Origin: a virus
Taxonomy: Duplodnaviria > Heunggongvirae > Uroviricota > Caudoviricetes
Direction: 5' to 3' (one strand)
Length of the DNA stretch: 35,331 nt
IMG/VR virus record: IMGVR_UViG_2703718813_000007
Shown one piece after another: positions 2,332 through 35,331 of the stretch; position 1 is the first letter of the stretch; the number at the start of each line of letters is the position of its first letter. Under the pieces are notes generated by a model, which made no database searches, was not told where the DNA came from, and worked only from the letters and a program-made list of their open reading frames with translations. A program made the translations under genes and the position numbers.

Positions 2332-2615
2332 TGCCTGGCGTTGAAGCAGACAACGCTATCGCACTGGTGATATTCTTTCGCACAGGCTTACTCTGTCCTG
2401 TGTCGGGGCGATGAAAATGATTCTTTCAAGAAAAAAATTGAAATTGAGGTTGTGCAAAGTGGAACGGCTGATAATCCTGAGACGGTTACAAAAATAAAGG
2501 TTTCACGCCCGGAAGATCTTGAAGCGTGTGGTGTTATCGTGGAAAAAATTTGTGCTATTCATGCAAAATCAGTTAATACCACTGCCAGTAACGACCACAA
2601 TAAATACAACTGAAC

Positions 2616-2638
2616 AAAAAAGCCCGCATATTGCGGGC
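2616..2638 (-). terminator. Terminator of hok unit C transcript
   Basis: GCCCGCA (2622-2628), loop TAT, TGCGGGC (2632-2638), with a plus-strand A-run at 2616-2621. Confidence 0.5.
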
Positions 2639-2729
2639 AAATACGTCTGTAATCCAATGGAGAAAGGGGTGCCATATCGACCGAACCCGGCAACCGGATA
2701 GCGGGGGCTTTCACCCCCGCTGCGGTTTC

Positions 2730-2870
2730 TTACTGTTTACACTGCAAGAACGCCGCAAATTGTGACCACATGATGTTAAGCCTGAACTCACAGGGTGAGT
2801 TGTGTATCATCCAGACAATCATCAAAATAGTTATGCATAAAATGCTCACTATGATCGTTTTTTGCGGCAT
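2730..2870 (-). CDS. hok: Hok/Gef-family small membrane toxin, copy C (46 aa)
   Basis: Minus-strand ORF ATG at 2870 to TAA at 2730-2732, translating to MPQKTIIVSILCITILMIVWMIHNSPCEFRLNIMWSQFAAFLQCKQ. AAAAGGAG precedes the ATG. Confidence 0.65.
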   Translation of the reverse strand: MPQKTIIVSILCITILMIVWMIHNSPCEFRLNIMWSQFAAFLQCKQ

Positions 2871-3025
2871 AGCGCTTGACTCCTTTTACAGGGAGGCGCT
2901 AACCTTCCACTTGTCTAGGGTAGGAAGGGTTAGGCCTCGGGTTAAACAAATGTTTGACTCGGGGCCTTTCCACATCCGGCCTTCAGGTAATCCTTCCAGC
3001 CGTCAGCCGAAAGGCACCCGCGCGT

Positions 3026-3054
3026 AATTTACCTTTTACGTCCGTTACGTGCAA
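3026..3054 (-). promoter_or_regulatory. Candidate promoter of hok unit C (minus strand: -35 TTGCAC, 17 bp, -10 TAAATT)
   Basis: AATTTA at 3026-3031 and GTGCAA at 3049-3054 on the plus strand; the -35 sits inside a CCGTT-ACGTGC-AACGG palindrome. Confidence 0.3.
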
Positions 3055-3696
3055 CGGATGACGTGGCTGTTTTTCCTTCCCCTTCGCCATCCTTTTTCGG
3101 AGCAGTTGTGCAAAAGTGTGCAAAAGTGATTTTTGCTGCCACTCCCCGCCAGGCCGCGCAAGTTCTGGCTTTCCTGATTTTTTCGTTTTCGTCGTCGGAT
3201 CCTTTTTCAGATCTTCGATCGTGACGTAATTTTAAAAATCTCTTGTTATTCAGTGCATTAAAATTTTTCGGGATCCTCAGAAAGCCGGAGTTTTTGCACA
3301 CTTTTGCAAAACCTTGCACAAAGTGCAAAACCATTCAGAAGGGAAATCCTCAGTAATGGCGCGCCCTGGCGGGGTGTTTTGCACCCCTTTCGATTTGCAA
3401 AATTTATCGTACACAAATACCGGAGGCGTGTGCGGGGTAGCGCCGATTACGTCACTTTACGCGTTACGTCGCCCCCGAAAATTTCCGGCCATTTGCGGCG
3501 ATTTTGGGGCGCAGAAATCGTTTTCTGATGTCAGGGGATCGAATCGGGCTGGCGGGGTTATCTCTTCGTTACGTGGCGTTACGCGACGTTTTACGTGGGG
3601 ATTAAGTGGGGCGTTTCGTCCATCTTTTTTCTGCTGCGGACGGTTTTTTCGTGGTGGGTGATGTCCGGTGATGAATATTTTTTATTGTCCGGGAAT

Positions 3697-5410: not shown

Positions 5411-5953
5411 TTACTCCAGCGCATCATTGACGGGTTTGAGGACCTTTTCTTCGAACCAGGTCATTTTCTCCGGTGTTTCGTCGGCCACGGTCCCGCCTTT
5501 TGCGCCGGGCGTCTGCGGCGTCTGTTTACGGCTGCTGCCGGGGGTGGCGCGTGCCTGGCGTTTTTCCGGTACGCTTCGTCTTTCGCGTAATGTGAAGCTG
5601 ACCTGCCAGGCGAGGCGGTCGGTCTGCTGCTGTGCGTCTATCTGCCCGGAAAATGTCCCTTCACGAAAGTTAATGGCGGCAGCGGTGGCGTTTGCGATAC
5701 GGTAAACTTTCAGGGCACCGTCCCCGGTGGTGGCAGAGGCCAGCTGGAAAATGCGCTGAAGGGCCCGCTCATTGTCAAAGGTGATCATCCCGGTTACGCG
5801 AAGCTCTTTGGCCTTGATGCCCTGCTCGGCGTTCGCGGTGCTCGATGTCTGGCCGGACTGGTCCTTTTCCTGGAACTGCATCGAGGGCGAAATCACCATG
5901 TTCTGCATGAAAATACCCTCACCATCAAGGGCGAGCAGTGCGGTCTGGCTCAT
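5411..5953 (-). CDS. Phage tail-associated protein, function unassigned (180 aa; start may be the internal ATG at 5908)
   Basis: ORF in the tail operon between the tail-fibre assembly gene and the hub-spike gene. The track start overlaps the upstream gene by 29 nt, while the internal ATG at 5908 is preceded by GAGGG. Confidence 0.4.
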   Translation of the reverse strand: MSQTALLALDGEGIFMQNMVISPSMQFQEKDQSGQTSSTANAEQGIKAKELRVTGMITFDNERALQRIFQLASATTGDGALKVYRIANATAAAINFREGTFSGQIDAQQQTDRLAWQVSFTLRERRSVPEKRQARATPGSSRKQTPQTPGAKGGTVADETPEKMTWFEEKVLKPVNDALE

Positions 5954-6650
5954 GGATCATTTTCCCCAGTTCGGTTAATGAGTCTGCCGCCAGGAGTGCG
6001 GCCACAGTATGTACGGCGGTCGGTGCCGGGATATCCTTCACCATGGCCGCCGCTGCGGCGCGGTGATACCCCCGGTACTGAAATACCCAGGCCTGCGCCT
6101 TCTGTTCTGCCAGTGTTCTGATCCCCTCTTCCAGTCCGGCAAGTGCGCCAGCCCGTCTGCTGATAAAGCGGCTTATCTGGCGGCGAAGCCCTGCGGCATC
6201 CGGGCGTTGTGCTGCCAGCTGCCTGGCCTGTGCTGCACGGGCGGCACTGACTGCGCTGCGTATTGTGGAAACGGAAAGATGCACAGGTGCGGGCAGGGTG
6301 TCGGTGGTGATCGGGATTTGCATTTTGTCAGTGCTCAGACTGGCGGCAGCCTGTGCCATGCGCTGTGCCTGCGTGAATACCGGCACGGGCAGAACGGTGG
6401 TCAGTGCCGCCATTGACTGTATAAAAAGATCGTGGGTGTTTTCGGCAATCATGATAATGGTCACGTCGCCGGATGCACGGCTTCCGGCCATTTTCCCGGC
6501 CAGCCAGTTTATGGCGTTCGGAGGGCTTAAATATACCCCCGATTCTTCATATCGTCCCAGCCCGTAAGTCCACGGTGTGACGGGGATGACGGAACAGCTC
6601 AGCGGGGGCATGTCAGCGCTGACGCTGATTGTTTTTCTTGTCCACGTCAT
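5925..6650 (-). CDS. Phage tail-associated protein, function unassigned (241 aa, Ala-rich)
   Basis: ATG at 6650 preceded by GGAGG, 11 nt after the stop of the tail-fibre assembly gene. Same strand and operon as the tail genes. No motif recognised. Confidence 0.4.
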   Translation of the reverse strand: MTWTRKTISVSADMPPLSCSVIPVTPWTYGLGRYEESGVYLSPPNAINWLAGKMAGSRASGDVTIIMIAENTHDLFIQSMAALTTVLPVPVFTQAQRMAQAAASLSTDKMQIPITTDTLPAPVHLSVSTIRSAVSAARAAQARQLAAQRPDAAGLRRQISRFISRRAGALAGLEEGIRTLAEQKAQAWVFQYRGYHRAAAAAMVKDIPAPTAVHTVAALLAADSLTELGKMIHEPDRTARP

Positions 6651-26504: not shown

Positions 26505-26909
26505 TTACCTGCGTGATTGTCTGCCAGCGGCTGAATGCACATAGCGGGCAATTGCCGCTTTGCGGTTAATCGATGCCAGTGTTCTGGTCAGTTCTGCGTT
26601 GTGTTTGTGTGCCTGCTCTTCGTGGTACTGCCGCATGATTTTTCCGGCAGGCGTGAGCGGCTCCGGCTCTCCGGGCGGACGGCGCGGACGAACGGCGACA
26701 AGCCAGCTGCGGTTGGTGCTGTCCGGTCGTCCGTTGAGTATGTCGGTGATGATGGCCGTGGTGGTGCGATCGGGACTGACGACCGTGATTTCCAGCTCAT
26801 CGCCCGGTTGTGGCCCCGTGGCAATGTTGTTCAGGGTCAGTAAGGGCGTGCGCTGGCGCATCATTTCGTCAAAACGCTGGCGCTGCATGGCGCAATAAAA
26901 GCGGGTCAT
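26505..26909 (-). CDS. Hypothetical protein, 134 aa, translationally coupled to replication gene A
   Basis: The ATG at 26909 overlaps the A stop codon (ATGA). Occupies the position of P2 orf91. High-GC backbone composition. Confidence 0.55.
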   Translation of the reverse strand: MTRFYCAMQRQRFDEMMRQRTPLLTLNNIATGPQPGDELEITVVSPDRTTTAIITDILNGRPDSTNRSWLVAVRPRRPPGEPEPLTPAGKIMRQYHEEQAHKHNAELTRTLASINRKAAIARYVHSAAGRQSRR

Positions 26910-29425
26910 TGTGGCGCCTCCGTATTCGGTGCGGGGGTGATATCAATGCGGCGGGTGCTGTCATTCCAGTACGCGGTGCGTCCGTCAGCCAGGCGCACGC
27001 GGGCACCGTGACGGACGGAAACGACGGCGCTTTCATGCAGCTGCACGCCCAGCGCATCAAGCTCGCGGGTGATTTGTGCGGTGATGTGTGGCTCAGCGGT
27101 CAGTGCGACACTCACGCGAACGCCGCCAGCGGACGCACTGATGCCGCCGTTTTTCACGGTTTCCGTGTCAGGTTGCGGGTTTTTCAGCTGCCTGGTGAGT
27201 TGTTTTCGCTCTGTGGGGGTCAGTGACCTTAACCATTCACCCAAATCACCTTCCGGCAGGGTAAGTCGCTGCTCCCTGCGTCCGTCCGGCTGCCTTTCTG
27301 GCGGGTCGTTTATGGTCAGATTCTGGTCAGGGGGACAGTTATTGCCACGAGTCCAAGGTGCGGCAAAGCCGCACTCAACGTCAAAACCCTCGTCCGTGCG
27401 GTCTTCGTTTTCCGGCTTACGTCTGACCAGTTTCCAGGTGTCCGGGTGGGTGCATATGGTGTAGCGCTCCCCGAGTGACGGGGCGCGGACGCCGTAAATG
27501 CGTTGCGGGAATTCGCCGTAGTCGTTGGCCTCTTCGGCAGTTTCGTATGCGGTGCGGACTAGGTACGTGTTGCGGGGAATGAGCACACCACCCTGGCGGG
27601 TGATATAGGTGGCAAAACATCCCACGTCGGCGGCGGCCAGTATGGCGTCAATGTCGTCATGGTCCAGACGCTGCGGGGCAGCCGGGTTACGGGCCATCTG
27701 CCCGGCAAGGCGGCGGAGTTCTCGCCATACCTGGCGGGGAGGGATACCGAAGAACTGGAACTGGCGGATGCGGTGAAGGGCCGCCCAGCCGATGGCGTTC
27801 TCCACGGTTTCGGCCATGGTTTTGCCTGATTCCTTATCGACGTAAGGTTTGCCGGTTTTCGGGTCATTCCCCATGAAGGCGCTGGCGTCCAGGTTCTTAC
27901 CGATATAGGTCGCGATATAGCTCGCCGGTGTGCCTTTTGCCGGGTCGATTTTTTCGCATTTAAAACGCGGGGAGATATCATCACCCAGCTCTGCGCGGTC
28001 CTCCCTGATGGCGGCGTTGCGCATGATTTCAGTGATACGGGCTTCGTTTTCCGGGCTGGTGAATACCAGCATGTGCCAGTGCGGTGTACCGTCGTGGTGG
28101 GGCTCCACGGTGCGCACGCCGTACCAGCCCAGCCCGGCCTTGTTGATGGCCCTGCGGACGGCGGCGAAAAAGCGGTAAACCAGATAATCACTGGCATCAC
28201 GTACCGTTGCTCCGCAGTATTTCGGGTTCAGGCTGCCGTCATCGTTCACGCTGTGAAAACGGGAAGGGGCTGTGACGGTGACGAAAAACGCCACGTCGCC
28301 GCGTGCTTCGGCGACCTGCTCCATTCCCCGGACGCAGGCCATCATCTCGTTACGGCGGTTACGCGGATTAGAGAGACCTGCCCAGTAGATATCCTCAAGG
28401 CTGAACCGTTCTCCCTCTTCGTTCTCGATGTCCCAGGCCTTCAGAAAATCGCGGGTGCGCTGGCGTTTTTCGCGCCAGTCCAGTAACGCTTCATGGCTGA
28501 TATATACCGATGTCTTACGTGACACCAGACCTGCGGCGCGTAACAGTTCTTCACGCCAGATGTCCCGGAGGTGTCTTAACTGACTGTTCCACCATGTCGC
28601 ACAGGAAAGGCGCATGACCGCACCCGGCACCTGTTCCGGGTCGGGGGCGGTGCGGCGGTCGGGCCTGATTTCCAGCGACGGCCAGCAGGGTGGCGTGATA
28701 CCCAGTTTTAACGCCATGTGTGCCAGTGGCTGGTAGGTCAGTAACCAGGTGAACAGGTCATCGTCACCCCTGCCGGTCTTTTCGATGACCTCATCACATG
28801 CGCGCTCCAGTGCGGTGGAAAACGCGGTGGCGGTCAGGGTGGCAAGGCGCTGGATTTCGTCACGGCTCAGCTGCGGCAGCATAAGCAGTTCATCCAGCCG
28901 TTCGCGCGCGGCGGTGGCCTTAAAGGCCGGGGTGGCAAAGCGATCATTCACACGGGCGATACGTTTCAGGCGGGCACGCAGCCCGTGACGAACGAAGTTA
29001 TCCGCCGCGTATGCGCTGTTGTTCTTAAGCCCTTCCCGGCGTGCGCTCTCCTGTTTGCGGCTCAGGCGTGCCAGGTCACGGATGAGCGGACCGGCAAGAA
29101 ACGGCGGCAGGGCGCGCAGCTCTGCCATGGCTTCAGATACCAGCGTTGGCGGATTCTCGTGTTTGTGCCGCGCCAGTTTTTCCAGTCTGATCCGACGCTC
29201 TTCGTCGTGGTGAAGATGCGAATTAATTCGCTTGCCTTCGTCTGTGTTTGTCAGGAAGTCGACGGTCTCTTCATCCAGTCTTGCATCAATGCGAATGTCT
29301 TCGTTGATGTAGCTCTGAATGGCCTGGCGCAATGCGGTTGGTTGCGCTCTGCCGAATGTTTCAGGATCGATAACCGGTAGCGGGGCGTTCCACGGGTACG
29401 CCAGTTGTGCGTTATGGTCGCTCAT
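26906..29425 (-). CDS. A: Replication initiation endonuclease (rolling-circle), P2 gpA-like, about 839 aa
   Basis: Size and position match P2 A; the central region contains a His-hydrophobic-His cluster (PHWHMLVF) and downstream Tyr residues (ASYIATYIGK) typical of rolling-circle initiators. ATG at 29425; the track begins at a GTG at 29434. Confidence 0.88.
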   Translation of the reverse strand: MSDHNAQLAYPWNAPLPVIDPETFGRAQPTALRQAIQSYINEDIRIDARLDEETVDFLTNTDEGKRINSHLHHDEERRIRLEKLARHKHENPPTLVSEAMAELRALPPFLAGPLIRDLARLSRKQESARREGLKNNSAYAADNFVRHGLRARLKRIARVNDRFATPAFKATAARERLDELLMLPQLSRDEIQRLATLTATAFSTALERACDEVIEKTGRGDDDLFTWLLTYQPLAHMALKLGITPPCWPSLEIRPDRRTAPDPEQVPGAVMRLSCATWWNSQLRHLRDIWREELLRAAGLVSRKTSVYISHEALLDWREKRQRTRDFLKAWDIENEEGERFSLEDIYWAGLSNPRNRRNEMMACVRGMEQVAEARGDVAFFVTVTAPSRFHSVNDDGSLNPKYCGATVRDASDYLVYRFFAAVRRAINKAGLGWYGVRTVEPHHDGTPHWHMLVFTSPENEARITEIMRNAAIREDRAELGDDISPRFKCEKIDPAKGTPASYIATYIGKNLDASAFMGNDPKTGKPYVDKESGKTMAETVENAIGWAALHRIRQFQFFGIPPRQVWRELRRLAGQMARNPAAPQRLDHDDIDAILAAADVGCFATYITRQGGVLIPRNTYLVRTAYETAEEANDYGEFPQRIYGVRAPSLGERYTICTHPDTWKLVRRKPENEDRTDEGFDVECGFAAPWTRGNNCPPDQNLTINDPPERQPDGRREQRLTLPEGDLGEWLRSLTPTERKQLTRQLKNPQPDTETVKNGGISASAGGVRVSVALTAEPHITAQITRELDALGVQLHESAVVSVRHGARVRLADGRTAYWNDSTRRIDITPAPNTEAPQ

Positions 29426-29832
29426 GCGTCGCACTCCCCGGCAGTCGCCGCCTGAAACGCCGCGCGGTACAGCACGAGAAGGCGCTGGTATTCACCGATA
29501 AAGTCTTCTGCGGTGTATATGCCTTTCACGGCCACGCTGTGGTTTGTCATTTCCAGAACAAGCGTCATCTCTGACGACGACCAGCTGATGGCGGTGCTGT
29601 CGGTTCCGTTGATGTGAAATAAACCAAAACCATCACCTTTCACGTCCACGCGGTAACGGTCGTCAACGGTGAAGGAGAAATCCCCGTATGTGGTGACGCG
29701 TCTGGCGGCCTGTTTACAGGCGCGGCGGTAATAGTCGTGCCAGTCGTTGAGGCGGGAAGCCAGCCGGGGCTCCACTGCCCACATCCAGTTAAAAAAATCC
29801 TGAATATCTGAAAGTCCCTTAACGTTCTTCAT
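29422..29832 (-). CDS. Hypothetical early protein, 136 aa
   Basis: ATG at 29832 preceded by GGAGG; its stop overlaps the A start. Function unknown. Confidence 0.55.
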   Translation of the reverse strand: MKNVKGLSDIQDFFNWMWAVEPRLASRLNDWHDYYRRACKQAARRVTTYGDFSFTVDDRYRVDVKGDGFGLFHINGTDSTAISWSSSEMTLVLEMTNHSVAVKGIYTAEDFIGEYQRLLVLYRAAFQAATAGECDA

Positions 29833-30750: not shown

Positions 30751-31013
30751 GCTCTGGCTTCCTTCAGTAGCTGGTTAAACATGTGAGCAAGTGGATTGCT
30801 ACACCCGAACGGCATCGGGTTTACGTGGTAAGAAGCCTGGCCTCCTGTTTTGCGAGCGCGACCACCTGTGCTGCGGTTTGTTCTGATGACTAAGCCGCCG
30901 CGCCAGAGTCGGCGTAACTCAGCATTAATGGCTGTGGTTGGGGTATTCAGTGCTGCGGCGATTTCACTTCCGCTGCACCCCGGATTGGCTGCGATGTAGT
31001 CCAGAATGGTCAT
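30747..31013 (-). CDS. Winged-helix DNA-binding protein (putative transcriptional regulator), 88 aa
   Basis: The segment SGSEIAAALNTPTTAINAELRRLWRGGLVIR looks like a helix-turn-helix with recognition helix and wing. Assignment by pattern only. Confidence 0.5.
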   Translation of the reverse strand: MTILDYIAANPGCSGSEIAAALNTPTTAINAELRRLWRGGLVIRTNRSTGGRARKTGGQASYHVNPMPFGCSNPLAHMFNQLLKEARA

Positions 31014-31038
31014 CGTGAGATCTCCTTTGCAGTTCCGG

Positions 31039-31251
31039 TTATTCAGTCGGGTTCAGGGTGTAATCAATGGCGTTTTCAATACGGCGTTTAAGGTCCCGGT
31101 GGATCTCACCTGGTGTTACTGGTGCGCCCGGACCGCTCAGCGTTGCCGTGAAGTCGTCGATTTCCTCCAGTAACAGATTGCGGAGTACGGCGATGTGGTG
31201 GCGTGCGTCTTTACCGGGTTTACGTGCGTTGGTGGTGTACTTGCTGATCAT
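31039..31251 (-). CDS. Hypothetical small protein, about 70 aa (paralogue of the 30451-30750 product)
   Basis: The internal ATG at 31251 overlaps the stop of the upstream gene (ATGA). The C-terminal region LLLEEIDDFTATLSGPGAPVTPGEIHRDLKRRIENAIDYTLN is paralogous to the 30451-30750 product. Confidence 0.45.
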   Translation of the reverse strand: MISKYTTNARKPGKDARHHIAVLRNLLLEEIDDFTATLSGPGAPVTPGEIHRDLKRRIENAIDYTLNPTE

Positions 31252-31490
31252 GGCCGCAGTTCTCCGTGGGCTTGTGTTTCTGATTTCCATGCCCCTCTGA
31301 TGGCCGTTACTTCGCGAACGGTACTGGCAATCGCGGTGATTTGTGTTCCGTCAGCCAGATGGATGTAGAGATAATCAGCGTCTGACGGGCACGGCGTGGT
31401 CGTTGTGATCAAATGACTTTCCACCATGAACTCGTGGCCCACGGCATCGGTGAAACGCGTCAGCATGGTGGCGGTAAATATGCTGTTCAT
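31248..31490 (-). CDS. Hypothetical small early protein, about 80 aa
   Basis: ATG at 31490 preceded by GAGGGG; the track start at 31505 is a GTG overlapping the upstream stop. Confidence 0.4.
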   Translation of the reverse strand: MNSIFTATMLTRFTDAVGHEFMVESHLITTTTPCPSDADYLYIHLADGTQITAIASTVREVTAIRGAWKSETQAHGELRP

Positions 31491-31501
31491 CGACCTGCCC
31501 C

Positions 31502-31780
31502 TCACGCTGAAAACTGGCCGGACTGTGTCCGGAGTTCTGCCAGTTCGCGCTCGAGGCGCAGGTTTTTCATATAGAGTTCACTGATGGTCTGTTTTGCTGT
31601 CACCATTGCCATGCTTTGCATTTGCAGGGCCATGTAGGTGGCAAAATGCTTGTCTTTATCTATTTCTGATATTCTTTCATCCAGTACATTGGTTATTTCA
31701 GTCAGCGTTTTTTGCGTAAATTCAATATGCGCCGGGTCGGTAAATAGTTTGTTTATTTCTGTAGGTGTATTGATGCTCAT
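31502..31780 (-). CDS. Hypothetical early protein, 92 aa (helical, coiled-coil-like C-terminus)
   Basis: ORF in the early operon; no motif recognised. Confidence 0.45.
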   Translation of the reverse strand: MSINTPTEINKLFTDPAHIEFTQKTLTEITNVLDERISEIDKDKHFATYMALQMQSMAMVTAKQTISELYMKNLRLERELAELRTQSGQFSA

Positions 31781-31859
31781 AGCTGTTTCTCCGTTTCTGG
31801 ATTGAGTGAAGCCCTCCGCAGATGCGGATGGTTTTAATGTTTTCTGTCCGGTTGGTTAT

Positions 31860-31985
31860 TTATTTACGGCGTTCTTCGCCAGTAAATAAAGATTCGATAT
31901 TTTTCAGCGCTTCGATAATTCGCATAATGCCAATCGCCATAAGCACGGAAATAATCAGAATCACCCATGAAAGAAATACGCTCAT
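31860..31985 (-). CDS. Small hydrophobic protein, 41 aa (below the ORF-track cut-off)
   Basis: Its ATG at 31985-31983 overlaps the TGA of the upstream 80 aa gene (ATGA); translates to MSVFLSWVILIISVLMAIGIMRIIEALKNIESLFTGEERRK, one transmembrane helix plus a charged tail. Confidence 0.35.
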   Translation of the reverse strand: MSVFLSWVILIISVLMAIGIMRIIEALKNIESLFTGEERRK

Positions 31986-32224
31986 GCTGCCACCTCTGTG
32001 AAATAAGGCTCAACGATTTCACCTTCAAACAGTTCGGCCACAATAACTTTTAATTCTTCCAGTGCTTCGCGGTCATCGCTGCCCAGTGCGCAGTTATACA
32101 GTCCCATAATTGCGCCCCGCAGTGAGTTACGAAGTCCTTCGTCCCGGGTTACACCCCGGTTTGCGAGTTCGAAGTGATAACGCTGCAACGCATTATTAAT
32201 AAGTATTTTGTAGGCTTCGATCAT
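31982..32224 (-). CDS. Hypothetical early protein, 80 aa
   Basis: ORF in the early operon; no motif recognised. Confidence 0.5.
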   Translation of the reverse strand: MIEAYKILINNALQRYHFELANRGVTRDEGLRNSLRGAIMGLYNCALGSDDREALEELKVIVAELFEGEIVEPYFTEVAA

Positions 32225-32243
32225 GGCTGAATCCTTTTATTTA

Positions 32244-32582
32244 TCAGCGGCGATGTTCCGGGTGCTGAAAACTGCGACCGCTGATTAACCGGTCTGCCGT
32301 TCTTAATGCTTCGTGTAGGGTGAAATCCTGCCCGAACTGCTCATCTCCGCGAGTCAGGGAGTAACAGGTATTTCCGGTAATCGGGTTGCGTGCGCCTCTG
32401 TGTATGACAATTCCGGCATCATTAATCAGCCAGGTGTGTTTACCGGTTTGTTTAACCAGATGCCCGTCAGGTGTGGCGTGCGTTTCCTGCAGGCTGTAGT
32501 GCGAGTTGCTGCGTGATGCGCTGGTTGAGAAACGGGCTGCGTGGCGTTCTGTGCCAGTGCGGAAGCTGCGTCTCTGTGTCAT
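32244..32582 (-). CDS. Hypothetical early protein, 112 aa
   Basis: ORF in the early operon, preceded by a CCACGC-CCGGC-GCGTGG hairpin at 32633-32649. Confidence 0.5.
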   Translation of the reverse strand: MTQRRSFRTGTERHAARFSTSASRSNSHYSLQETHATPDGHLVKQTGKHTWLINDAGIVIHRGARNPITGNTCYSLTRGDEQFGQDFTLHEALRTADRLISGRSFQHPEHRR

Positions 32583-32689
32583 ATCGAAAAACCCCGTTTA
32601 AGTTAAATGAAAATCAGTGCCGGGATGTTTAACCACGCCCGGCGCGTGGTATTCTGGTGTTTCCACACAACCAGAAAAAGGAGATAACA

Positions 32690-32884
32690 ATGTCTTACGA
32701 CGATGAATTAATAAAAATGCTTAAATCAGTAATTGAAATCGTGGATAAAATCCCCGAAGTTCCTCCGTCTTCTGATGATAAGCACGATCAAATCAGAGAT
32801 CTGGCTAACGATGTCCGCGAAAAAGTACTTCATAAATACCCTCGCAAGAGTTCCTGGAACTTTTCTAAGGGACCAACATACTAA
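32690..32884 (+). CDS. Hypothetical small acidic protein, about 64 aa, AT-rich cargo gene
   Basis: ATG at 32690 preceded by AAAAAGGAG at 8 nt; the track start is 32657. Convergent with the 131 aa gene, stops 13 bp apart. Markedly AT-rich by eye. Confidence 0.5.
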   Translation: MSYDDELIKMLKSVIEIVDKIPEVPPSSDDKHDQIRDLANDVREKVLHKYPRKSSWNFSKGPTY

Positions 32885-32897
32885 TAACCATGCCTGG

Positions 32898-33293
32898 TTA
32901 CTCCGGCATTTTTCTTTTGTAAATAGTGGTTTTATTAAGTGCCATTTCTCCGAATATATCCACAGCCTGCTCAACGGGCAGATTAATCATTATTCCACGG
33001 CTTGCGTATAGCATTATTCCGATGCATCCATTTTCTCTACTTTCGCAAAAGTGTCCGAACTCTGCTTCTGGTTTAAGTATCAGGTCATCAATGTTTTCAT
33101 TCGCTTTTAGCTTTGAACAAAAGTTAATTAATCCTTCAAGCTCTTTGTGTAACTCGCTATAGGTTGTTGTGATTGTTATTTTCGGTGAGCCTTCCAGATG
33201 CATCAGTATCGTGGCGTCCTTGTGTTCCTCTTTCAGGAGGCTTAACTGCTTAAGGACGGTTGCGGTTTTTTCTGATTTATTTTTGCCGCTCAT
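32898..33293 (-). CDS. Hypothetical protein, 131 aa, AT-rich cargo gene immediately downstream of the Cox-like gene
   Basis: ATG at 33293, 7 nt after the stop of the Cox-like gene. AT-rich codon usage unlike neighbouring phage genes. No motif recognised. Confidence 0.55.
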   Translation of the reverse strand: MSGKNKSEKTATVLKQLSLLKEEHKDATILMHLEGSPKITITTTYSELHKELEGLINFCSKLKANENIDDLILKPEAEFGHFCESRENGCIGIMLYASRGIMINLPVEQAVDIFGEMALNKTTIYKRKMPE

Positions 33294-33299
33294 CGATCA

Positions 33300-33824
33300 T
33301 CACCGTTCGTTTACATCCTGGCTCTGTTCCAGCTTTGACTTTCTGCCTTTGTAAACCCGTTTTCCATTGACGGTCTGGCAATCTTCCTTATCAGCCGGGG
33401 TAAACTTTCTTTTCTGGCGGTCGTATGTCCAGTAGCTTTTCCAGTTGTGCCATTCTGGTGGCTCGCATTCCGGGAGTTCGTCGGCCAGCTTGTCCCACTC
33501 TCTGACGTTAAACCACCAAACACCATCCGAATTCTCATCTTCAGGGTTTGAGCGGGTTTTATGTCCTGGCATCTGGTTACGCTGAAGAGCTGCGCGTAAT
33601 GCTGTTTTTGTTAATCCGATGTAGGCGGCCCCTTTTTCAAGTGAGCAAAGCCCGGCTATTGGGCCATCCAGCCGCAGGGTTGCCCCTTTTTTATATGTGC
33701 GCTGTGGCTTTTGTTCGTCGTTGTTATCTGTTGCTTCTTGTTGACTGGTATTGGCGTTGATGTACGCCGCTCCAGTTGTGTGATCGGTGTCAGATAACTC
33801 TTTATCGGCAATGAAGTCCCGCAT
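33300..33824 (-). CDS. Cox/Apl-like DNA-binding regulator (putative excisionase/transcriptional regulator), 174 aa
   Basis: First gene of the operon divergent from the repressor gene. The segment AAYIGLTKTALRAALQRNQMP ... GVWWFNVREW looks like a helix-turn-helix plus wing. It is longer than P2 Cox. SD GAGAGGA precedes the ATG. Confidence 0.5.
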   Translation of the reverse strand: MRDFIADKELSDTDHTTGAAYINANTSQQEATDNNDEQKPQRTYKKGATLRLDGPIAGLCSLEKGAAYIGLTKTALRAALQRNQMPGHKTRSNPEDENSDGVWWFNVREWDKLADELPECEPPEWHNWKSYWTYDRQKRKFTPADKEDCQTVNGKRVYKGRKSKLEQSQDVNER

Positions 33825-33885
33825 TTGTTATCCTCTCGCACAGGTGCGCCTATTGCACCTTATGAAGGTTTGTTTTGGGTTGTGA

Positions 33886-33937
33886 AGATAATCGAAAGGT
33901 TATCTTTTTCGAGAGGTTAATACTCAAATGGTTATCT
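33886..33937. promoter_or_regulatory. Operator-like repeats in the divergent repressor/Cox promoter region
   Basis: Inverted repeat AGATAA (33886-33891) and TTATCT (33900-33905); direct repeat GGTTATCT at 33898-33905 and 33930-33937, the latter overlapping the repressor start codon. Confidence 0.4.
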
Positions 33938-34269
33938 TGTCAATAGACTACGCGGAAAAATTACGCCAGATACGTAAGGCGGAGGGCTTAACGCAAAAAC
34001 AATTTGCTGAAATTACAGGGTTATCTCTGGCCACCGTAAGGAATTATGAATCAGGGCAAAAGAGCGCCAGAGCTAAAATCGTGGAGTCGGTTCTTCAGGC
34101 AGATCGATTTGAAAAGTATATGTTTTGGCTGTTAAAGGATAAGACGCTACCTGCCGCCGGGCAAATTGCCCCGGCTCTCTCTCTTGATGGATCTTCTCAG
34201 TCGGAGGGCGATCTGGCTTCAATCGACGTTACCCAAAAATCATCCCGATCAGGCCGCAATGCTGGCTGA
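33928..34269 (+). CDS. C: Immunity repressor, P2 C-like (helix-turn-helix), 113 aa
   Basis: The N-terminal KLRQIRKAEGLTQKQFAEITGLSLATVRNYESGQ and the later GQIAPAL match P2 C as I recall it (SRQQLADLTG, QIAPAL). Directly upstream of the integrase. Confidence 0.8.
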   Translation: MVILSIDYAEKLRQIRKAEGLTQKQFAEITGLSLATVRNYESGQKSARAKIVESVLQADRFEKYMFWLLKDKTLPAAGQIAPALSLDGSSQSEGDLASIDVTQKSSRSGRNAG

Positions 34270-34338
34270 CGTTACACATCGAGCGGGTTTCATCCCGCAG
34301 GGAGTGTTTGGTTAATTTATCCGTTGGAGGGGCTAATC

Positions 34339-35331
34339 ATGTCGATTAAGCAACTCAAAGACGGACGTTATAAGGTTGATGTAAGGCCACAAGGGACGGA
34401 AGGAAAGCGGATTCGTAAGATTTTTACCCTGAAGTCAAAGGCGCAGGAGTTTGAAAGGTATGTTTTGCAGAATTTTCATGATAAGCCATGGCAGGCTAAG
34501 CCAGCAGATCAGCGTCGGTTATCCGAACTGATAGAGGCCTGGTGGCTGCTTGATGGTCGTAACCAGGATTACGGGGATACCTACAGGGTCAGACTGGAAA
34601 AGATAAACCGTGAGATGGGTGATCCTCGTGCCAGTCAGATGACGCGAAAATTTATGCTCGGGTACCGGTCCGACAAATTACAGGCCGGGTTAATGCCTTC
34701 CAGCATTAACCGCGATTTGTGTGCCTTGTCTGCAATGTTCAGCTCGCTGATTGAGGGTGAGGTGTTCCATAACGAAAACCCGGTTCGGGGAATACGTAAG
34801 CTGAAAGTCAGGAACACAGAGATGGCCTTTCTTTCAGATGAGGAGATTGAACGACTGCTTGAACGACTCGATGGAGATGCGCGGCGTGTTGCCATTCTGT
34901 GTCTTTCCACGGGGGCAAGGTGGGGTGAAGCAGCTGGTTTACGTGGGGAACATATTGTAGGTAACCGCGTGATGTTCTTTAACACCAAGAACGGAAAATC
35001 TCGCGCCGTTCCCGTTTCTGATGCGGTACTTGCGTTAATTAAAACCCGCAGAACCGGATTGTTGTACCAGGCTGATTACCTCAGATTTCGGGAGATCCTT
35101 CAGGAGGTGAAGCCGGACTTGCCGAAAGGGCAGGCCACCCATGTCATGCGTCATACATTCGCTACACATTTCATGATGAATGGCGGAAATATCGTTACGC
35201 TACAACGAATCCTGGGCCATGCCACGATTCAACAAACGATGACGTATGCGCATTTTTCGCCGGACTTTTTACAGGATGCAATCAGCTTTAATCCGCTGGC
35301 TGAAAGTGTCCATAAACTGTCCATCGATTAG
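34339..35331 (+). CDS. int: Tyrosine integrase, P2 Int-like, about 330 aa
   Basis: MSIKQLKDGRYKVDVRP aligns with the P2 Int start MAIKKLDDGRYEVDIRP. Conserved LSTGARWGEAA, GQATHVMRHTFATHFMMNGG and TLQRILGH..I.QTMTYAHF motifs are present. The ATG at 34339 is preceded by GGAGGGG; the track begins at 34324. Confidence 0.92.
   Translation: MSIKQLKDGRYKVDVRPQGTEGKRIRKIFTLKSKAQEFERYVLQNFHDKPWQAKPADQRRLSELIEAWWLLDGRNQDYGDTYRVRLEKINREMGDPRASQMTRKFMLGYRSDKLQAGLMPSSINRDLCALSAMFSSLIEGEVFHNENPVRGIRKLKVRNTEMAFLSDEEIERLLERLDGDARRVAILCLSTGARWGEAAGLRGEHIVGNRVMFFNTKNGKSRAVPVSDAVLALIKTRRTGLLYQADYLRFREILQEVKPDLPKGQATHVMRHTFATHFMMNGGNIVTLQRILGHATIQQTMTYAHFSPDFLQDAISFNPLAESVHKLSID

Follow-up and report, generated by a model that had tools for sequence, protein, structure and literature searches.

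A hypervariable accessory slot downstream of cox in P2-like prophages: two uncharacterised protein families and a portable leader

What are two small, AT-rich genes that point at each other doing inside the early operon of a P2-like prophage? The window, by which we mean the whole stretch of 35,331 nucleotides analysed here, comes from such a prophage and carries the integrase and the HTH C-type repressor gene (C) at its right end (Table 1). The genes follow in the order C (+), cox (-), orf131 (-), orf64 (+), and then DUF4761, DUF4754, several small ORFs and the gene for replication endonuclease A, all on the minus strand. This order is compatible with a minus-strand early operon, of which cox is the opening gene. 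From gene order alone, transcription of the early operon must cross orf64 in the antisense direction, as a sequence-only reading of this DNA had also concluded. The same reading described a 131-aa minus-strand gene and a 64-aa plus-strand gene with a strong Shine-Dalgarno sequence (SD), AAGGAG, and stops 13 bp apart, and the sequence agrees in each respect: orf64 ends with TAA at 32882-32884 (+) and orf131 with TAA at 32898-32900 (-), leaving a gap at 32885-32897. The plus-strand ORF as listed opens at a GTG at 32657, and the internal ATG at 32690 yields the 64-aa orf64. The start of orf131 lies 6 nt past the cox stop, and orf131 is probably translationally coupled to cox. E. coli JNEC-KY174 has an identical prophage next to dmsA, and RefSeq lists both of its genes there as hypothetical. 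The claimed AT-richness is borne out by calculation. GC content of 32583-33293 is 0.405 versus 0.558 for the whole window, which is the minimum among all 711-bp segments (mean 0.559, sd 0.049; 0.2% rank), so that the locus differs from the phage backbone in the way by which morons are recognised (0.405 versus 0.559). Gene by gene, GC is 0.385 in orf64, 0.399 in orf131, 0.499 in cox and 0.555 in DUF4761, and GC3 is 0.37 and 0.42 in the two module genes against 0.52-0.68 in neighbouring genes. The pair is also absent from P2-type records; thus, neither an ordinary base composition nor conservation across all P2-like phages is found.

Table 1. Coordinates of the features discussed, in positions of the window
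Feature	Position	Strand	Basis or remark
orf131 (131 aa)	32898-33293	-	ORF list; RefSeq WP_062857813.1 in the identical prophage
orf64 (64 aa)	32690-32884	+	ORF list; RefSeq WP_044188229.1
Shine-Dalgarno AAGGAG of orf64	32678-32683	+	6 nt 5' of the ATG; read from the sequence
Portable leader	32617-32677	+	GTGCCGGG up to just 5' of the SD; conserved over ~60 nt; folding z = -3.45
Leader hairpin A	32617-32624 paired with 32638-32645	+	GUGCCGGG with CCCGGCGC; mutually exclusive with hairpin B
Leader hairpin B	32633-32649	+	CCACGC-CCGGC-GCGTGG; 97% of cells paired in 17 distinct leaders
Leader hairpin 2	32654-32674	+	CUGGUGU...ACAACCAG; ends 3 nt 5' of the SD; 96% paired
Extended -10-like motif	32647-32655	+	TGgTATTCT; from alignments; TGnTATTyy in most leaders
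Terminator-like hairpin	32890-32918	+	ATGCCTGG-TTACT-CCGGCAT, then TTTTCTTTT; directly 3' of the orf64 stop
cox, Cox-family gene (174 aa)	33300-33824	-	Pfam Phage_Cox 3e-6; phrog_23196 3e-95
HTH C-type repressor (C)	33928-34269	+	Right end of the window
Integrase	34324-35331	+	Right end of the window
Replication endonuclease A	26906-29434	-	Far end of the early operon
19-nt direct repeats	33888-33906 and 33920-33938		ATAATCGAAAGGTTATCTT / ATACTCAAATGGTTATCTT; 32 bp apart; between C and cox
92-aa ORF	31502-31780	-	Early operon
41-aa hydrophobic ORF	31860-31985	-	MSVFLSWVILIISVLMAIGIMRIIEALK...; RefSeq-annotated, kept in related prophages

To judge from their substitution patterns, both orf131 and orf64 are real genes. 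Proteins of the orf131 family consist of a conserved core of ~115 aa and a variable C-terminal tail. Over the 115-codon core dN/dS is 0.14-0.23, indicating purifying selection (omega about 0.2), and the frame stays open in homologues across 11-70% nucleotide divergence. The orf64 family is likewise under purifying selection, with dN/dS of 0.36-0.57 (omega about 0.45). In its members, a conserved helix at the N-terminus is followed by a Pro-rich loop and another helix, and the K-Y-P motif is invariant; orf64 itself is a small soluble protein without a predicted membrane segment, encoded antisense to the early operon. The C-terminus of orf64 is under weaker constraint. In some genomes, which account for the variant protein clusters P0003, P0004 and P0005, the last ~15-20 residues are altered by frameshift, read-through or truncation, and residues 1-45 are invariant.

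Both families are isolated in sequence space. A profile search with orf131 recovers 34 clusters, all from Enterobacteriaceae (E. coli, Salmonella or Citrobacter). Exhaustive HMMER searches point to a single true distant relative, P0006 (30% identity, E 2e-11), and a word-indexed search of 5.8 billion proteins returns near-identical sequences only. Neither orf131 nor orf64 has a match in Pfam, PHROG, PADLOC, NCBIfam or the PDB sequences; their homologues have none in PADLOC either, and no resemblance to a known defence, exclusion or regulatory protein was found for the two. The AlphaFold2 model of orf131 (pLDDT 77) matched no known fold, and neither an HTH or other DNA-binding signature nor similarity to CII was detected in this protein. 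The searches of homology and structure gave no support for a toxin-antitoxin system. Topology of the model had suggested a HicA-like dsRBD with a catalytic His in the GHF motif. We rejected this assignment since it has no search support and since the motif is missing from one of the alleles described below. The locus is not discussed in the P88 genome paper or in two papers on P2 hotspots, and cox is not mentioned in PMC9122126. The accessory slot and its portable leader are undescribed, and both protein families are dark.

Genes of the orf131 family are nearly always found 3' of cox, and directly so in most loci. The exceptions are L042-L046, where the gene lies 100-200 bp downstream of cox, and L050, where a 117-aa gene stands between cox and the big gene. 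In L042-L046, which are of the P0006 type, a conserved block of 100-200 bp (~5900-6000) parts cox from the big gene and holds a palindrome, CAGT-N16-ACTG, and a promoter-like TTCAAA-N18-TATATC, so that the big gene of this type may have its own promoter.

The pair exists as three deeply diverged alleles, namely, that of the window, that of P0006 and that of ST131/P88-phage, and each of them occupies the same site between cox and DUF4761. All three are convergent, with 0-13 bp between the stops, and AT-richness persists in the other alleles (GC 0.37-0.42). The window allele is present in 8 of 5426 complete E. coli genomes, plus three in which the small gene is replaced. The partner of P0006 is a convergent gene of 60 aa with 38% identity to orf64, and prophages of this type vary in Cox (three types) and in the site of integration (three sites). 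The third allele, a 140-aa gene with a convergent 63-aa gene, resides in an ST131/P88-like prophage at dmsA and is found in 270 of the 5426 genomes as well as in three deposited phage records. Its small protein aligns with the orf64 family with an hhalign probability of 95% (E 2e-8) and its big protein with the orf131 family with a probability of 78% (E 1.9e-5), colinearly over 117 columns. Residues E78-x-G80-H81-F82 are invariant in two of the three alleles, and the ST131-type big protein is the one without E-x-GHF. Some allele is thus carried in a P88-like prophage by ~5% of complete E. coli genomes, pandemic ST131 included. Between the ST131 and P0006 types, the flanking proteins are closely similar (Int 98.8%, C 97.3%, Cox 80.9%, DUF4761 88.8% and DUF4754 98.8% identity), whereas neither module protein gives a BLASTP match. 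From the window type to the P0006 type, the big and the small gene have diverged equally (dN 0.640 and 0.637, respectively). The module is therefore the most diverged spot between otherwise near-identical prophages, a signature expected of genes involved in phage-phage or phage-host conflict. The sequence-only reading proposed a horizontally acquired module. The locus is indeed accessory, variable and compositionally deviant, but three diverged alleles within conserved flanks speak against a recent one-off insertion. Judging from these comparisons, the module is an old, co-diverging, very fast-evolving or balanced polymorphism of the P88-like lineage.

The third element of the locus is the leader in front of orf64. 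The same leader stands in front of at least eight unrelated small genes. It occurs in P2-like prophages and phages of E. coli, Salmonella, Citrobacter, Yersinia and Pectobacterium as well as in lambdoid prophages. Without exception, the small genes behind it run antisense to early lytic genes or diverge from them. A cmscan of 31000-35331 against Rfam 15 (E<=1) gave no match at the leader, and its core sequence was not found in the literature searched. Hairpin B covaries, with one pair occurring as CG, UA and AU and a covariation score of 0.27 versus 0.126 in shuffled alignments (0/500), which is above all slid controls too. Hairpin 2 contains two pairs with compensatory double changes (0.208 versus 0.082; 0/500), and its G.U pairs are possible on the plus strand only. 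In its place, other leaders have longer stems, unrelated in sequence, which still end just 5' of the SD. Hairpin A is conserved, yet no covariation was found in it. A consensus scan and inspection by eye for sigma-54 or canonical sigma-70 promoters revealed nothing convincing in the leader beyond TGnTATTyT. This extended -10 reading overlaps the U-rich tract after hairpin B, and the L007-type lambdoid leader retains TATTCC without the TG. The element could be an RNA leader that works as an attenuator-like switch between A and B or as a stabilising hairpin at the 5' end, and this is the interpretation favoured by the G.U pairs, since these form on the plus strand only. Alternatively, it may be a promoter with a palindromic operator, in which hairpin B would be a palindrome within the spacer of the promoter. 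Should the leader act as an RNA switch, with mutually exclusive hairpins A and B followed by the U-rich tract, it would represent an undescribed cis-regulatory element of prophage morons. A 26-codon uORF (MKISAGMFNHARRVVFWCFHTTRKRR followed by a stop; 32608-32688, +) spans the leader and ends 1 nt 5' of the orf64 ATG. It was considered as a leader peptide and rejected, since other leaders do not conserve its ATG.

At the other end of orf64, the terminator-like hairpin is embedded in the last codons of orf131. Its stem is perfect in L037, an allele of 86%, and GC-rich hairpins are also found 3' of the small gene in L042 (P0006 type) and in Salmonella phage SEN5. The hairpin suggests a compact monocistronic unit, with no read-through predicted to C and int.

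We tentatively favour the view that the locus is one allele of a hypervariable two-gene accessory module, in which an antisense moron of the lysogen is joined to an early-lytic partner and which serves competition between phages. Here orf64 would be a self-contained transcription unit with a leader (promoter and/or 5' UTR), a strong SD and its own terminator. Its direction, opposite to that of the early operon under C repression, would permit expression in the lysogen, as with a classical moron. In the lysogen, C would repress the early promoter Pe, leaving the antisense unit free to make the small protein, which may act there in inter-phage competition or lysogenic conversion. Upon induction or infection, Pe would fire, and cox and immediately thereafter orf131 would be transcribed, orf131 being made only under this condition. 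Transcription from Pe would collide with the orf64 unit and pair with its transcript, sense with antisense, and orf64 would be silenced. The big protein would then be the phage's own early-phase counterpart, e.g. an antidote or a modulator; a physical interaction between the big and the small protein is presumed, as are the timing of expression and the phenotype. Several observations weigh against this model: no canonical sigma-70 promoter was found, neither protein resembles known defence, exclusion or regulatory proteins, and the big protein of the ST131 type, besides lacking E-x-GHF, is joined to its family by an hhalign probability of 78% only.

The closest comparison group is that of morons, as conceived by Hendrix and Juhala, with lambda bor and lom, P2 tin, old and fun(Z) and CFT073 neaT among them. 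Like these, orf64 is an extra, compositionally deviant gene with putative expression signals of its own (PMC3573123). It is also variable among relatives, antisense to lytic genes and expected to be expressed in the prophage (PMC7067206); an orientation antisense to lytic operons is recognised as typical of genes in prophage accessory loci, and sieB is mentioned there too (PMC7067206). Unlike the known P2 morons, the module lies outside the two recognised moron and defence positions of P2, which are A-Q next to cos and G-FI (PMC3573123, PMC9122126, PMC13586616). It further differs from morons in that orf64 is coupled to a conserved early-operon partner and that its leader is common to many cargos and phage families. 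A second parallel concerns genes of temperate phages that exclude other phages. The exclusion genes sieB/esc of P22 and lambda and rexAB of lambda sit in the early-left operon and have their own promoter in lysogens. Our module is similar in being a small accessory gene in an early operon, putatively expressed in the lysogen, with a presumed means to spare the phage's own lytic growth. There is, however, no similarity of sequence or fold, and orf64 has no predicted membrane segment. Immunity or superinfection exclusion, both named in the sequence-only reading, is a reasonable guess as the role.

How firmly the two genes belong together is another matter, and the contents of the slot bear directly on it. 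Comparison of related prophages, which the sequence-only reading had recommended, shows that these contents vary between close relatives, as is typical of morons. In several prophages the core of the orf131 family (~residues 1-115) is retained while the convergent gene is unrelated, and at least four such cargos were found. The replacements include the ECs1072 family (155 aa), a 78-aa family and a pair of 41 and 162 aa, and in strain 154, which has the window-type allele, there is a 107-aa cargo with an extra 172-aa minus-strand gene. The length of the big protein follows the cargo: 131-137 aa with orf64-type genes, 202-203 aa with ECs1072, 162-163 aa with the 78-aa gene and 121 aa with the 41+162 pair. 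Since the C-terminal tail changes with the cargo, the swapped cassette has one edge near codon 115 of the big gene and the other at the leader. The ECs1072 cassette was sought in lambdoid contexts and found solely in the same P2-like slot. Conversely, in SEN5 an orf64-like gene is convergent with an unrelated 158-aa gene, between cox and C, and L003, L005, L006, Pectobacterium, Yersinia phages and lambdoid prophages have the leader with cargos in the absence of any orf131 homologue. These arrangements argue against an obligate pair, and the swapped cargos together with the SEN5 partner are the main reason why our confidence in a functional pair is limited. It is possible, although somewhat unlikely, that the two are unrelated neighbours, orf131 being a fast-evolving early gene (e.g. 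for host takeover or regulation) and orf64 an independent moron in a recombination-prone slot. The retention of the orf131 core with at least four other cargos, the foreign partner in SEN5 and the leader-borne cargos without orf131 are all in line with independence, and genes only 0-13 bp apart would show matched alleles from tight physical linkage alone. On the other hand, the same two families are paired across three alleles that are BLASTP-negative with respect to each other within near-identical flanks, and the orf131 tail or an extra minus-strand gene shifts with the cargo, hinting at a functional match between the strands.

A stronger version of the pairing seems unlikely to us. According to it, the big and small proteins would form a cognate, allele-specific pair for self/non-self recognition among P2-like phages, in which the small protein of the lysogen neutralises, or is neutralised by, the matching early protein only. 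The leader would be a portable expression-and-recombination cassette with which Peduoviridae and lambdoid phages swap small antisense anti-phage genes. If true, the slot would constitute a third, previously unrecognised accessory hotspot of P2-like phages. Like the P2/P4 defence hotspots (Rousset et al. 2022, PMC9122126), it is a small locus of high turnover between conserved P2-like genes. Unlike them, it is situated between cox and DUF4761, at the immunity end and not next to cos (the old/tin position), and its cargos are tiny single genes (40-190 aa) with no known defence domains and a common leader cassette. Whatever the pairing, the leader (~45-60 nt) offers a sequence handle for harvesting small accessory genes from P2-like and lambdoid prophages, which fall under the size and domain filters of current defence-system finders.

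The conserved part across cargos is the leader and not the protein, and the leader is always placed within the early operon, at its head, or in the interval from cox to C. This is consistent with a device for the lysis-lysogeny decision, in which the antisense unit acts chiefly in cis or orf131 is an early regulator antagonised by the small protein. The convergent promoter and antisense RNA would then dampen leaky early read-through into the replication genes, and what the cargo encodes would be secondary. P2 (Pe/Pc) and 186 (pR/pL, with pE activated by CII) have well-established switches built from face-to-face promoters, and in the present locus, too, transcription would converge on an early lytic operon with transcriptional interference expected. 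Unlike in those switches, the antisense unit ends at a predicted terminator ~1 kb before C and int, which limits the antisense overlap to about 200-300 nt. Conserved cargo ORFs (dN/dS below 1) with strong SDs, the lack of an HTH or DNA-binding signature in orf131 and the different regulatory setting of the lambdoid copies also count against such a device, which we regard as quite improbable. An establishment module of the 186 CII/pE type was rejected: with the predicted terminator after orf64, the antisense unit should not serve as an establishment promoter, and orf131 has no HTH or CII similarity.

Highly improbable is the toxin-antitoxin or abortive-infection pair, of which the sequence-only reading had suggested the toxin-antitoxin form, with one protein toxic and the other its antidote, since the shared features (two small, linked, AT-rich genes with co-diverging alleles on a mobile element, as in type II systems) are outweighed by convergent, separate transcription units in place of a bicistronic operon, by partners that each occur without the other, by a big gene that should be repressed with Pe in the lysogen, and by the lack of any detected toxin family or fold (RelE, MazF, HicA, VapC, Doc and others) or antitoxin DNA-binding domain (HTH, RHH or AbrB) in either protein. 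The more general idea behind that proposal fares better: a conflict-related role of this accessory locus is probable, and the earlier interpretation, directionally right on its accessory and variable nature, is partly supported.

Several observations concern the surroundings of the module and other carriers of the leader. The direct repeats between C and cox (Table 1) are probably the C-repressor operators of the Pe/Pc switch. A search for operator-like repeats common to this switch and the leader yielded one 10-nt match only, probably by chance. In the early operon, the 92-aa ORF has weak PADLOC matches to the candidate defence proteins PDC-M64B (E 4.6e-4) and PDC-M64C (E 2.5e-3), and the 41-aa ORF is possibly a small membrane protein. 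In L004, L007 and other lambdoid loci (e.g. L004 2502-2831), the leader precedes a zinc-ribbon gene of the ECs_2282 family, antisense to the bet/gam early-left operon. The protein matches PADLOC candidate PDC-M14A (E 6e-6); the RefSeq start codons of this family vary by record, and one takes the leader as coding sequence. In L003 (3001-3315), L006 (2501-2807) and L064 (SEN5; 2501-3288), leader and cargo are found between cox and C. With this layout, unusual for a P2-type switch, either Pe transcripts cross the cargo to reach cox or the cargo heads the C-int operon. Finally, in L065 (Yersinia phage vB_YenM_42.18; 2501-2730) a 39-aa ORF that has an SD but no annotation comes after the leader, and the 221-aa CDS annotated there on the opposite strand is probably spurious.
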